DNA of 64,000 nt. Source: an uncultured cyanobacterium (lineage in GTDB: Bacteria; Cyanobacteriota; Cyanobacteriia; Cyanobacteriales; Cyanobacteriaceae). The notes beneath the pieces are model-generated. The model was not told the origin of the DNA, did no database searches, and saw nothing but the letters and a program-made list of their open reading frames with translations. Position 1 is the stretch's first letter. The number at the start of each line of letters is the position of its first letter. Shown here piece by piece: positions 60,586 to 64,000 of the stretch. The DNA lies in assembly GCA_963710605.1 (NCBI GenBank), contig CAVQBA010000005.1, positions 64,001 through 128,000 of the forward strand. The letters are read 5' to 3'. A program made the translations under genes and the position numbers.

Positions 60586-60683
60586 CCAAATTAGAAGCAA
60601 AATATTGAAACTAATCTACTTAAATTATGTTGGTAAATAGTTGAGGTAATTAAGATTGGTTGTTTAAGTAATTTTTATCAATG

Positions 60684-60872
60684 TTAATCTTTCCATTGTG
60701 TGCGACGATATCGCTTCCAATTTTTCATTCTTTTGCGAGTGTTAAGGGATTCGTAACACCATCGGTTCGATTTTAAACACCATTCACATAATCTTAATTC
60801 AGGATATATTTTTACTGCTCTATATCGAAAACTTTCAAATTGAGGATAATCATATTGATCGTATTGTAGTCC
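60684..60872 (-). pseudogene. 3' part of a small basic host gene interrupted by the IS/intron insertion
   Basis: GLQYDQYDYPQFESF...CEWC...KNWKRYRRTQWKD*; exactly 63 codons starting at the inferred IS end. Confidence 0.55.
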
Positions 60873-60873
60873 T

Positions 60874-63216
60874 ATCGGGTAAGGTTTGAGGGTCACCCCT
60901 CGCACCTCCCCTAGAACCGTACGTGTCAGTTTCCCAACATACGGCTCAAGCCTCACTTCAAGCCTTTGACTTGGTTTTTGAATGTACCTGTTTGTGACAA
61001 GCTTTATGCAGATGTACAAGGTTGTCAGCGGAATCATTACCGCCATCTGATACTGGTACGATGTGATGGGTTTCCAGCTCTTCTCCATTGAATAGATATT
61101 CTCCACAAATTTGGCATTTCCAATTTTGATTTACAGCTACTTGATAGTATTTACTACCTTTTGCCCAGTAATTTTTGCCCTGTTTTAATTTGCGGTTGTT
61201 CCAGTATTCACGGAGTGAGGGATTATCTGGACTAGCGTTGCCTCTGACTTTGACGTGTCTGATGATAGGGGTTCTAGCTATATTGTATAGGATACGAGTT
61301 TCTCTTTTCCTTTTCTTCCAGTTCCTTTACACATGAACCACCGTTTACTTCCTCTGAAGCGATGAAAATATTTGTTTTAATACCATCTTTTTGATTTGTT
61401 GGGATGTCTTCTTTTAGCCCAACGATAAAGGTAATGCCATACTCGATTTTCGATGTATGAGAAGGTTTCTTTGCTAACTGCACCTCTGTAGTAATTAGCA
61501 AAACCTCTGAGAAGTGGATTCAATTTTCTGATAACATTTTCTTGAGTCCGACGCCTTCATTTCTGATAGTGTTTTCCCTATCTTTTTACAGAAGGCAAGT
61601 ACTTTTTCTTTTTGAGGTTTAATCAATAACTTCCCTTTGTATTGGCGAAGGTTGAATCCTAAAAAGTCGAATCCGTCTTCTATATGAACTATCCTTGTCT
61701 TCTCAGCACTGATTTCTAGTTTTCTTTCGGATAACCATTGTCTTTATCTGGATAGATATAGTTTCTAAAGATTCTTTATCTTTTGCAGTGATTACAAAAT
61801 CATCTGCATATCTTATAAATCCTAGTTTTTTATTTTGGAACTTAACAAACTCTTCTAAACCATGTAAACCAATGTTGGCTAATAATGGACTAATCACTCC
61901 ACCTTGTGGTGTTCCAGCCTCAGTTGAGTTATAAACTCCCTTTATCTATGTATCCAGCTTTTAACCATTCTTTATTATAGCTCATTGGGATGAGATTCAA
62001 TCATAGTTTAGAATAGATTCATGAGAAATGTTATCGAAGAAACCTTTTATATCAGTGTCTAGAACCCATTTGTCTCTATTTAATTTACCACCCATGAGTC
62101 TTTTAAAACATTGCTCGATGGCATCCTGACAGCTTCGACCACATCTGAACCCATAGGTGTTAGGTTCAAATATGGCTTCCCATTCGGATTCTAGTGTATT
62201 TTTGACTATTGCTTGTGCAACTCTATCTCTCACATTTGGGATTCCGAGAGGACGTTTCTTGCCATTAGATTTGGGTATGTAAACCCGTTTTGTTGGAGCT
62301 GCTCTTGGCATTTTCCATTCATTGACAAGTTTTACTCGCTGTGCAGGGGTGTTTATCACCTCTTTGTCTATCCCTGCGGTTTGCTTTCCGTATTGACTTG
62401 AGTAATTTGTCTTACACTTAACAATAGGTTTGACAGACTCTTATTATCAATTTTTGCAGCCTTCTTAGCTGTTTCCATTGACCAAGTTTTCTGGCACGGA
62501 AAATTCGGCCTCGCAAATTCTTAACAACTTTATAGAGCTTTACGCCAGTTGACCTGACTCCAGTCCTTTAATTGTCTATTGTCTCCATTTATCAAAATTG
62601 CTTTTGACATCTAACTTTTAACTCCGTTTAGAATCGTTGTGTTTTCGTTTTGTCCGTATAAGACCTAGAGCAACGTCTGCTTTTACTTTCGTTCAGGGGC
62701 AAATTTTGAACCCCTATCTCAATAATTACAATCAAGCATTCGCTTCTTGCTCCATCTTTTACCCTCCAGAGATTTCCGTTTTTGTTACCTCAAACCTACT
62801 CATTGTTTGAGACTCTGTTGGGCTTACCCTGTTGTATCTTTTGGAGTTTTAATGTGGTTAGGATGGTTGACTATTGTGCGATGGAGGTTTTATTTCTACT
62901 TCCTTGTTAAAGTCAAGAACAAGGAATTATCCATTTACCATTTTGGTTCAAAGTCTATCAGGGATAATTTGACTTTTTCGGGAGTAACGCACTTTAATCA
63001 TCAACTTAGGCTACGTTCATCCTTCCACATCTTTCCCTCTAGCTCCTTACCGCTTAATCCCTAGCAGTTACGGCTACTTTTTAGGGTCTGCATTCCAACT
63101 GTTTCGTTACCTACTCGGTTGTGACCAAACTCTTTTGAGTTTTTTCTATGAGGGCAGGTGGTAGAAAACACCTGGGAGCTACACGCTCTGTTCCAATCGA
63201 CCAGTTCAGGTCGCAC
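60874..63216 (-). mobile_element. Group II intron (probably IIB, chloroplast-like class)
   Basis: 5' end GTGCG at 63216; domain V GAGCCGTATGTTGGGAAACTGACACGTACGGTTC at 60947-60914; domain VI ending CCCGAT at 60874; internal RT-maturase-HNH remnants. Confidence 0.93.
60958..62610 (-). pseudogene. ltrA: Intron-encoded reverse transcriptase/maturase/HNH, multiply frameshifted
   Basis: MSKAIL...DWSQVNW; RVYIPKSNGKKRPLGIP, YGFR.GRSCQDAI, DIKGFFDNI, GTPQGGVISPLLANI, RYADDF, GFDFLGF, HHIVP...NLVHLHKACHKQVH, spread over different frames. Confidence 0.9.
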
Positions 63217-63400
63217 TGACATACTCCCGTCGCGCATGGGCGAGGGATTCTCCTCAACTCAACAAGTCTTTGAGAGAAGGGAGCGTTTTATCCTGACTGC
63301 CGCCCACAGCCAGCTTTTTAATTAGCAACGCAGAATTGTAGTCTCGGTCGCAGCTTAAACCACAGCTATCACATTCGTGCCAACGGTCACTTAGAGTTTT
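63217..63400 (-). ncRNA. IS200/IS605 right end / predicted TnpB omegaRNA (reRNA) scaffold; 5' boundary approximate
   Basis: After the tnpB stop: GAGAATCCCTCGCCCATGCGCGACGGGAGTATGTCA, a subterminal hairpin plus TCA(A) terminus. Overlap with the tnpB 3' end is assumed from family knowledge. Confidence 0.6.
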
Positions 63401-64000
63401 ACTGACTCTATTTAGACATTGACTACAATGCTGGCTAGTTCCTCTTGGATTAACTTTGACAATTCTAGTGCCGTACTTTTGGGCGACTATTTCTACTATT
63501 TCTAGGAAGTTCCCGACGGCATTGTCACTCCAAGATTTATTCATTCCAGAAGAAGAAGATTGTCCGTTCTTGACGAAAATACCGTCAACTTTCTTTGGCT
63601 TATTTCTACGCAACATGTTGCGGATTTTTAAATCCTCAATGGCTAAAACACTACAACTACTAGCTAATTTATGTGCCTGGTTATAGTGCCAATCTTTTCT
63701 AGCCCGCGCTATTTTTTGATGAAGTCTAGATATTGCCCGTCGCACGAGTCTTTTCGCCTTCACTGAACGGGTTTTATCTTCTAGTTTTCTCTGTAATTTA
63801 GCTAGTTTAGATTGAGATTTTCTAAGATGTCTTTGAGGTAAGGCTTGGTTTTCATTTGAATCTACATATAGTTTTTCGAGTCCAACGTCTATTCCAATTG
63901 TGTTTGAAAGAGTAGCAACTGTATCTATCTCTATTTCAGGAATAGATTTGTCTTCCACTGACAAGTTTACGTAGTAGCCATCTGCTTTTCTAGTTACAGA
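63254..64000 (-). CDS. tnpB: IS200/IS605-family RNA-guided endonuclease TnpB (5' end outside window)
   Basis: RuvC-I GIDVG, RuvC-II AIEDL, Zn finger CSQC/CDSC, RuvC-III DRDYNSA; frame open to the window edge (SVTRKADGYYVNL). Confidence 0.95.
   Translation of the reverse strand, partial: SVTRKADGYYVNLSVEDKSIPEIEIDTVATLSNTIGIDVGLEKLYVDSNENQALPQRHLRKSQSKLAKLQRKLEDKTRSVKAKRLVRRAISRLHQKIARARKDWHYNQAHKLASSCSVLAIEDLKIRNMLRRNKPKKVDGIFVKNGQSSSSGMNKSWSDNAVGNFLEIVEIVAQKYGTRIVKVNPRGTSQHCSQCLNRVSKTLSDRWHECDSCGLSCDRDYNSALLIKKLAVGGSQDKTLPSLKDLLS

Follow-up and report, generated by a model that had tools for sequence, protein, structure and literature searches.

The 64,000-nt window analysed here comes from an uncultured cyanobacterium of the family Cyanobacteriaceae (GenBank assembly GCA_963710605.1, contig CAVQBA010000005.1, positions 64,001 to 128,000 of the forward strand; G000:C5:64001-128000 in our coordinates, where G000 is the label of this genome's assembly). 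At its far end, the minus strand carries an IS608-like insertion sequence (IS) of the IS200/IS605 family with divergent tnpA and tnpB genes, and the right end of this IS is interrupted by a group II intron (Table 1). TnpA was assigned to Y1_Tnp in Pfam (E 4e-35) and has an HAH motif at residues 77-79 and a C-terminal tyrosine in KKYVQNQ. TnpB has the Pfam domains OrfB_IS605, Cas12f1-like_TNB, and HTH_OrfB_IS605, both CxxC pairs of the zinc ribbon (CxxC..CxxC), and a complete RuvC triad, namely D214 (GIDVG), E298 (AIEDL), and D396 (DRDYN), which align to those of solved TnpB-type nucleases. The two reading frames are uninterrupted, with 0 frameshifts and 0 stops over 1,767 bp together. A whole-assembly search found no second close copy of this IS, which is single copy in its genome.

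Table 1. Features of the interrupted insertion sequence and its intron, in window coordinates (RT, reverse transcriptase; EBS and IBS, exon- and intron-binding site; ORF, open reading frame).
Feature	Position	Strand	Remarks
Host flank GGACTACAATACGATCAATA	60853..60872	-	Putative guide, expected on the omegaRNA solely after splicing
Final base A of the IS (TCA|A), cut off from the rest by the intron	60873	-	14 of 14 intron-free relatives end in TCAA
Group II intron, 2,343 nt, GTGCG...GAT	60874..63216	-	Junction reading, Rfam, and 7 homologues
Domains V and VI	60879..60949	-	RF00029 and inspection; AGC catalytic triad, GAAA tetraloop, and a bulged A 7 nt before the 3' splice site
Pseudogene of the RT/maturase/HNH intron-encoded protein	60962..62610	-	10 private frameshifting indels and in-frame stops
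Candidate EBS3 (U)	62873 (counted from motif position)	-	Tentative; potential partner of +1 A (terminal base of the IS)
EBS1 loop CUUGACUUU	62909..62917	-	UGAC pairs with GUCA at -4..-1; U-U mismatch at -5
EBS2 UACUCCCG	62979..62986	-	8 of 8 complementary to IBS2 CGGGAGUA, exon -13..-6
Right-end imperfect hairpin (CCCTCGC...GCGA-C-GGG), then AGTATGTCA	63217..63244	-	IS608-like right end minus its last base
Presumed omegaRNA scaffold (last ~180 nt of tnpB and 37 nt to the interrupted right end)	63217..63435	-	Predicted from the known TnpB system
tnpB, 3' part	63254..64000	-	Full gene 63254..64528, 424 aa, extends beyond the window end; ORFs in locus L015
tnpA (Y1/HUH, 163 aa) and IS left end	~64527..65045, past the window end	divergent from tnpB	ORFs in L015

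Read on the minus strand, tnpB stops at 63256-63254, and the IS runs on for 37 bases to ...GAATCCCTCGCCCATGCGCGACGGGAGTATGTCA, with ...GGGAGTATGTCA as its end at 63217. The intron starts at 63216 with GTGCGACC (GTGCGACCTGAACTGG...) and ends at 60874 with ...CCTTACCCGAT (...GGTGACCCTCAAACCTTACCCGAT), after which come a single A (60873) and then GGACTACAATACGATCAATA (GGACTACAATACG). Its termini, GTGCG...GAT, agree with the group II consensus (5' GUGYG, 3' AY). Furthermore, Rfam family RF00029 (group II domains V/VI) was found on 60949-60879 with 53.4 bits against a gathering score of 40, and domain V carries a compensatory change from G-C to A-U. We compared the first 657 nt of the intron with 20 genomes of the same family, of which nine (including G000) gave matches, and seven related introns were taken in full. 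These homologues are 75-85% identical to the intron over the aligned pieces, and their similarity begins exactly at GTGCG and stops at ...CCC(G/A)(A/C)T; as all seven share both limits, the length of the intron is 2,343 nt. The first base of the 3' flank varies among the introns, the one in the window included (A, C, T, C, A, A, A, and G). The intron is also single copy, no second copy being found in this genome. A first-pass annotation of the window had already described these junctions and their coordinates, the retention of the three RuvC acidic residues, and the position of the host-derived guide GGACUACAAUACGAUC only downstream of the intron; re-reading to the base bore out all of these.

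The ends of the IS could be fixed using copies without the intron. A TnpB protein scan of genome contigs led to close relatives in Xenococcaceae/Pleurocapsa-type cyanobacterial metagenome-assembled genomes (MAGs), and 14 copies with TnpB proteins 71-83% identical to that of the window were examined. All 14 are intron-free and read ...(hairpin)...GTCAA, 11 of them as ...AGTATGTCAA, and similarity ends there, the following base being G, T, T, T, A, A, T, A, T, C, T, T, A, and T. One of these MAGs, which are relatives and not the window's own genome, has seven IS copies with seven different flanks on each side. Because 14 of 14 intron-free relatives read GTCAA and then diverge, the comparison places the IS end at TCAA and the intron within it, at TCA|A, 1 nt short of the right end. 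The intron-free copies therefore end where the first-pass annotation had predicted, and the change of the DNA end from TCAA to TCAG that it noted is present; its statement that a group II intron lies at the right end stands, while the wording "exactly at the scaffold/guide junction" is off by one nucleotide, as its own text already made plain. No IS copy ending in TCAG was found among the 14 relatives. An empty site was likewise sought with the 874 nt beside the intron, which matched another genome of the family from base 294 onward only (the neighbouring gene), and no IS-free allele was found.

At the left end, TTAT immediately precedes a conserved CT(T/C)T start, which is followed by the hairpin CCCTCAC..GTGA-T-GGG, both in the window's element and in nine of ten relatives; the tenth (L053) does not align there, and the flanks preceding TTAT are unrelated among copies. 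TTAT lies 18-19 nt 5' of the left hairpin, TCAA terminates 10 nt 3' of the right hairpin, and GAAT sits immediately 5' of the latter. The element thus has subterminal imperfect hairpins, tetranucleotides at set distances, and no inverted terminal repeats, as do IS608-like ends of the IS605 group. In IS608, TTAC lies 19 nt 5' and TCAA 10 nt 3' of the hairpins, and each is read by a 4-nt guide sequence 5' of its hairpin (PMC3201880). TTAT is probably the target-adjacent motif of this TnpB family, for which the comparison with intron-free copies provides base-exact ends and for which no description was found in the literature searched.

Exon-binding sites were sought in an alignment of domain I from eight related introns (the window's and the seven homologues). 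The last 13 nt of the IS before the intron, CGGGAGTA-UGUCA, correspond to IBS2 and IBS1, with full pairing to EBS2 and, for EBS1, four base pairs and one mismatch; at the mismatched position, -5, the nearest relative has a matching A. Over the seven homologous introns, which represent five site types, the EBS2 and EBS1 segments co-vary with the 5' flank. For example, EBS2 segments and flanks pair as AUCCCGC/GCGGGGU, UCAUUCAUC/GAUGAAU, CUAGC/GCUAG, and AGUCC/GGACU, while the EBS1 loops of two relatives match their own flanks at six of six (L036) and eight of eight positions, including one G-U (L037). In a crude all-versus-all table, the row maximum fell on the diagonal (sometimes tied) in five of seven rows for EBS2 and six of seven for EBS1. 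As for EBS3, no column fits the +1 base in all seven introns aligned, the best being column 367 with six of seven. Since the recognition site consists wholly of IS sequence, the pairing indicates that the intron retrohomed into the IS, and not that the IS was placed beside the intron.

The first-pass annotation had also pointed to other intron copies and their flanks as a check, and relatives were indeed found at the right ends of two further TnpB elements. Contig G012:C27 has a related intron, 84-85% identical where the two align and with its ORF partly deleted, between ...GCGTGGGAGTGTCA and CTAAGC, downstream of a TnpB only 32% identical to that of the window. All 19 intron-free copies of this type of element, from six genomes including the window's own, end in ...TCAC and then diverge, so that the G012 intron splits TCA|C, also at position -1; in G012 itself, one of three matching IS ends carries the intron. 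On G043:C122, a related intron of 2,341 nt starts 99 nt past the last aligned residue of a third TnpB and is followed by TAAATACTGCAC. Two intron-free copies end in the same sequence, beyond which their flanks part, and this puts the intron 12 nt before the element end.

More broadly, of 401 genomes sampled across the order, 33 contain the 18-nt 5' end of the intron, with 50 matches in all. A TnpB was detectable directly upstream in three of the 45 distinct 5' flanks compared (a set that omits a copy within tnpB in G017 and a match at the start of contig G261:C80), and the lineage is not specific to TnpB ends; detection was by tblastn with ten TnpBs of this genome, which more distant TnpBs may escape. 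A scan of metagenomes for the junction motif yielded 69 matches in 68 stretches, among them one true TnpB-end/intron junction (L215, of the G012 type). L215 is the sole stretch with TnpB upstream and a sense RT gene downstream, a further one (L189) having a reverse-strand RT match only, and the other matches look like chance or unrelated sequences. Judged from these data, the TnpB-end/intron arrangement is recurrent but rare.

Other landing sites of the lineage were observed along the way. The intra-tnpB copy mentioned above (L038, G017:C1:3305486; 1,879 nt, with a truncated ORF) lies within the tnpB ORF after the RuvC-region peptide ...EAYTSKASFL. The site ...GGGTAGTTCA| at L036 and L041 was considered as a third right end and rejected: the motif follows ordinary host genes (an SBP_bac_5 gene in one case, and between der and argS in another), and no TnpB was demonstrable. 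A hairpin motif of about 35 nt, ...ACCCCG(T/A)YCTCCT.(hairpin).GGGTAGTTCAT, stands alone in intergenic DNA at L111 (G019:C26, der/argS), L113 (G012:C95), L041 (G009:C1, after SBP_bac_5), and L036 (G014:C5); twice, ...TTCA is immediately followed by a related intron or intron fragment, and the motif may be a solo right end or a PATE-like relic. A second conserved landing site, ...ATGTCAAAAGAGGAC(T/A)CCCGTT(RN)|intron, was seen in L039 (G013:C128), L040 (G017:C1:213692), L044 (G004:C5), L028 (G003:C147), and L145 (G062:C230), and partly in L033 (G019:C116). Of the three copies with a visible 3' flank, two (L039 and L044) have AACGGGAG, complementary to the 5' flank, at 30-40 nt downstream, and the 3' flank in G004 opens with a truncated second GTGCGAC; the site may be an unrecognised small repeat element or twintron-like. 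In addition, at least four intron copies in G054 follow the same ...TTAGTTGGGGATGAATGACGAC| (L130, L158, L159, and L161, besides matches at contig ends), and two copies in G017 follow ...GGGATGAATTG(T/C)GAC|.

Three paralogous tnpA/tnpB elements reside in the genome of the window (C6:839795-841490, C4:1206970-1208666, and C1:121617-123308), with TnpB proteins 58-59% identical to the window's. They end in ...GG(G/A)AGTATGTCAC and share the GG(G/A)AGTATGTCA target: the IBS2/IBS1 sequence of the window is exact in two of them and one base off in the third. None of the three carries an intron, and since these matching ISs are intron-free, the intron is evidently not homing in this genome now. As to the elements themselves, two of the three share 99.5% identity, and there is a frameshift in the tnpB of C4. 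All three right ends read ...GTATGTCAC followed by T, and their left-flank tetranucleotides have no obvious likeness.

The protein of the window's intron has decayed. Its ORF is fragmented, tblastn meets stops and frame changes throughout, and Pfam finds fragments of RVT_1 only. We counted ten private indels in this copy, none a multiple of three, against 0, 0, and 1 in three relatives with intact ORFs of 555-556 aa (L036, L037, and L039), one of which (L037) has RVT_N, RVT_1, GIIM, and HNH in Pfam. Private substitutions at otherwise invariant columns were also more frequent than in the intact relatives, both in the 5' part of the ribozyme (11.8% versus 6.0-7.6%) and in its 3' part (13.3%, 10 of 75 columns, versus 0-4.4%), though part of this excess may be lineage divergence. 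As the gene for the intron-encoded protein (IEP) is destroyed, any splicing would have to rely on a trans-acting maturase from a distantly related intron. Two other IEP genes of the genome gave single-frame matches to nearly the full query, one with 58% identity (C5:23239-24888) and one with 52% (C6:939118-937457). Outside the window, group II RT genes were noticed to crowd together at G000:C5:11,000-30,000 and G000:C6:936,500-946,400, some of them in fragments and perhaps nested, and in the C6 cluster fragments of tnpA and tnpB lie between them.

Turning to RNA, a consensus fold computed for the last ~220 nt of the element in nine copies has 54 predicted pairs, 14 of them with compensatory changes, in a region that also codes for protein and whose hairpin is also needed as DNA. 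In the right-end hairpin, seven of eight predicted pairs show compensatory changes, and its 3' arm, ...CGGGAG, includes bases of IBS2. Because this arm doubles as IBS2, the last scaffold hairpin would be unable to fold while the intron is bound to its exon, and vice versa. No omegaRNA-like Rfam family was found in 60800-63700 at a permissive threshold, and a search for sequencing runs over 60600-63700 gave none of any kind. The guide of TnpB is the DNA following the right end (Meers et al. preprint, PMC10055086). Unspliced RNA would accordingly present the scaffold followed by G-UGCGACCUGAACUGG..., that is, a guide made of the intron 5' end (3' ends UGCGACCUGAAC...), whereas spliced RNA would carry the guide GGACUACAAUACGAUC (3' ends GGACUACAAU...) behind the ligated junction ...GUAUGUCA-AGGACUAC.... 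The predicted targets would be TTAT+GGACTACAATACGATC for the spliced guide and TTAT+TGCGACCTGAACTGG for the unspliced one. In the assembly, the sole occurrence of the 16-mer UGCGACCUGAACUGG is the 5' end of the intron itself, with GTCAG and not TTAT in front of it; the 16-mer of the spliced guide is unique, and no empty site joining it to TTAT was found. In DNA terms, a point that the first-pass annotation had missed, the intron is now the right flank of the IS, and the unspliced guide would fit the joint left by a TnpA cut after TCAG, while the spliced guide would fit the ancestral site without IS and intron. Neither guide would simply be 'wrong', and either would gain a target only after excision or in an IS-free allele. 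This makes the locus a natural case of a guide physically parted from its scaffold, in which two guides, one intron-derived and one host-derived, can arise from one locus.

Two observations concern the host flank. The sequence ACTACAATACGATCAA (60855-60872, minus strand) has an inverted near-copy, TTGATTGTATTGTAG, at ~65156-65172 (L015), about 110 nt outside the left end of the IS; with R at one position, this motif occurs just twice in the genome, and the pre-insertion site may have held a long-range inverted repeat. An ORF of 140 aa (60684-61106, minus strand) spans the 3' splice site, reading from the HNH region of the intron into the host sequence beyond (...YPELRLCEWCLKSNRWCYESL...); it has 0 Pfam matches, and its flank portion may be the remnant of a small host gene.

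We regard a nested mobile-element insertion as the probable explanation of these data, one that left the IS copy disabled or at least altered and that probably involves no evolved regulatory gate. An intron encoding a protein with RT, maturase (X), and HNH domains would have retrohomed in sense orientation into the last bases of an IS608-like element, guided by EBS2:CGGGAGUA, EBS1:(U)GUCA, and probably EBS3:final A, and would have landed between the third and fourth bases of TCAA. In DNA, the tetranucleotide offered to TnpA for cleavage would then read TCAG and the IS would be flanked on its right by intron DNA. In RNA, the tnpB-omegaRNA transcript would run into 2.3 kb of intron, scaffold and guide would be joined only if it were spliced, and exon binding would compete with scaffold folding over the 3' arm of the right-end hairpin. 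At present, with its own maturase/RT gene destroyed, splicing would depend on a distantly related maturase encoded elsewhere in the genome. The lineage has struck TnpB right ends at least three times, which probably reflects an affinity of the intron for target sequence in a conserved, transcribed IS terminus. Even a dead-end intron of this sort shows that conserved omegaRNA 3' termini are recurrent landing sites of one intron lineage, across three TnpB families.

Several points weigh against this explanation. The chief one, directed against a 'dead fossil', is that the IS genes seem to be under selection if the IEP decayed after insertion, which fits an IS still at work in spite of the intron or by way of it: the probability that all ten frameshifts fall in the IEP gene (1,668 bp) and none in tnpA and tnpB (1,767 bp) is ~7e-4, a figure that takes frameshifts as random over both regions and assumes that the IEP decayed neutrally in place after the insertion. 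Besides, the at least two related and full-length-looking IEP genes (58% and 52% identity) could supply a maturase, and the ribozyme may be functional, given the compensatory change in domain V and a score well above the Rfam threshold. The position at -1 shared by two IS families, moreover, can be read as beyond accident.

A splicing-gated guide RNA, as proposed in the first-pass annotation, we consider unlikely. Under such a gate, only spliced transcripts would join the scaffold to the host guide, and TnpB homing of the IS, with the intron hitch-hiking, into TTAT+GGACTAC... would need splicing. Provided that the RNA is made, this follows by logic from the geometry; in addition, the intron is in sense orientation, enough EBS/IBS pairing survives for the exon to be recognised, nothing looks amiss in domains V and VI, the IEP has decayed but TnpA and TnpB have not, possible trans maturases exist in the genome, and the second IS family has the same -1 position. 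A conflict between a transposon-borne intron and an omegaRNA also has a precedent in group I IStrons (PMC10690162). On the other side, the maturase of the intron is dead and the nearest other one is 58% identical, EBS1 has a mismatch at -5, and the target of the spliced guide beside TTAT is not in the assembly. Nor does the unit show any spread, with a single copy here, one intron-bearing copy in G012, and one true junction among the 69 metagenome matches, and the intron is absent from the three paralogous ISs, whose targets are identical or almost so.

It is similarly improbable that the intron is neutral for the IS, in the sense that TnpA cuts after TCAG and leaves TTAT|TGCGACCTGAAC..., the unspliced guide directs TnpB to this joint, and peel-paste-and-restore continues without splicing. 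The intact tnpA and tnpB speak for it. In the IS608 pairing scheme, a change from A to G at the last position would presumably turn an A:T pair into G:T. A TnpB guide, moreover, is necessarily dictated by the DNA beyond the right end, whichever that may be (PMC10055086). Recognition of the cleavage site in IS608 is by pairing with four guide nucleotides 5' of the hairpin (PMC3201880), here GAAT. None of the 14 relatives, however, ends in TCAG, the IS is single copy here, and the last scaffold base would also change from A to G. Mutation of the IS608 right tetranucleotide (TCAA to AGAG), or its deletion, abolished a robust synaptic complex in the experiments reported (PMC3201880).

A three-way alliance appears to us quite unlikely. 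In it, the EBS2, EBS1, and EBS3 of a sub-lineage of cyanobacterial group II introns would be tuned to the conserved last 14 bases of IS200/IS605 right ends, the intron would settle between the omegaRNA scaffold and its guide, TnpB homing would need splicing, and the intron would be copied in break repair. Were it true, every IS copy would be a homing site whatever its flank, TnpB would be armed with an empty-site guide only after splicing, and the intron would be copied whenever TnpB breaks were repaired from the allele with IS and intron, uniting a transposase, an RNA-guided nuclease, and a retroelement as selfish partners. An IStron-like composite, in which IS and intron transpose jointly as one unit, is very improbable: the two are physically fused and IStrons show that fusions can be mobile (PMC4227781), but the intron has at its 3' end neither a right-end hairpin nor TCAA, and one copy is found here and one in G012. 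The intron is, moreover, group II by RF00029 and not group I, in line with the distinction from IStrons drawn in the first-pass annotation, and membership among the IStrons was rejected on this ground and on that of the single composite copy. That the IS inserted beside a pre-existing intron can be practically dismissed, for although IS200/IS605 elements insert without target duplication, so that adjacency alone gives no order of events, this order is contradicted by the last base of the IS lying on the far side of the intron, by the EBS2 match to the IS at eight of eight positions (unexpected if the IS came later), and by the same split in a second IS with terminal base C.

Compared with known systems, the host element resembles IS608 and the IS605 group (He et al. 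2011, PMC3201880) in its divergent Y1 HUH tnpA and tnpB, its bulged imperfect hairpins, the spacing of TTAY and TCAA, and GAAT 5' of the right hairpin. It differs in its left tetranucleotide (TTAT in place of TTAC), in a TnpB of 424 aa with its closest relatives in Xenococcaceae/Pleurocapsa MAGs, and in being interrupted. Stem-loop-targeting group II introns (class C introns after terminators and attC-associated introns; PMC7923331, PMC8919778) are alike in that they insert at a short fixed distance 3' of a conserved hairpin. In contrast to these, the relatives of our intron encode HNH, the 8+4 bp of EBS/IBS pairing explains the targeting, and other copies of the lineage lie at sites without a hairpin. 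Class C introns are not known to have an HNH endonuclease domain.

Introns that home to ISs are closer in kind. The homing site of RmInt1, for instance, lies in the insertion sequence ISRm2011-2. Here as there, a multicopy mobile element is a safe, transcribed landing site, and EBS1 and EBS2 choose the target. The site in the window differs in being the 3' end of a guide-RNA scaffold and a TnpA tetranucleotide, not a transposase ORF or a spacer, and the insertion consequently alters the host element at two levels, in its DNA end and in its RNA product. The guide RNAs of TnpB are defined by the position of the transposon end. Group II introns nested in other mobile elements have been described (PMC8919778), and in the open full-text literature searched we found no paper that describes one in an omegaRNA or in the right end of an IS200/IS605 element.

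IStrons, chimeras of a group I intron with IS200, IS605, or IS607 elements (Tourasse et al. 2014, PMC4227781; Zedaveinyte et al. 2023 preprint, PMC10690162), share with this locus a self-splicing intron and TnpB/omegaRNA on one transcript, in which folding can compete with guide-RNA formation, and an antagonism between intron and omegaRNA is described for these group I elements (PMC10690162). Here, the intron is group II, maturase-dependent, and placed 1 nt before the right end, whereas the intron of an IStron is the outer part of the element; there is no sign of transposition as a unit, and entry would have been by EBS/IBS-directed retrohoming. If splicing does occur, the conflict between intron and guide RNA would extend from group I IStrons to maturase-dependent group II introns, and a design principle would be suggested, namely splice-dependent guide activation. 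An intron nested in an IS is of a known kind, and the one described here may be taken as a group II counterpart of the IStron conflict.

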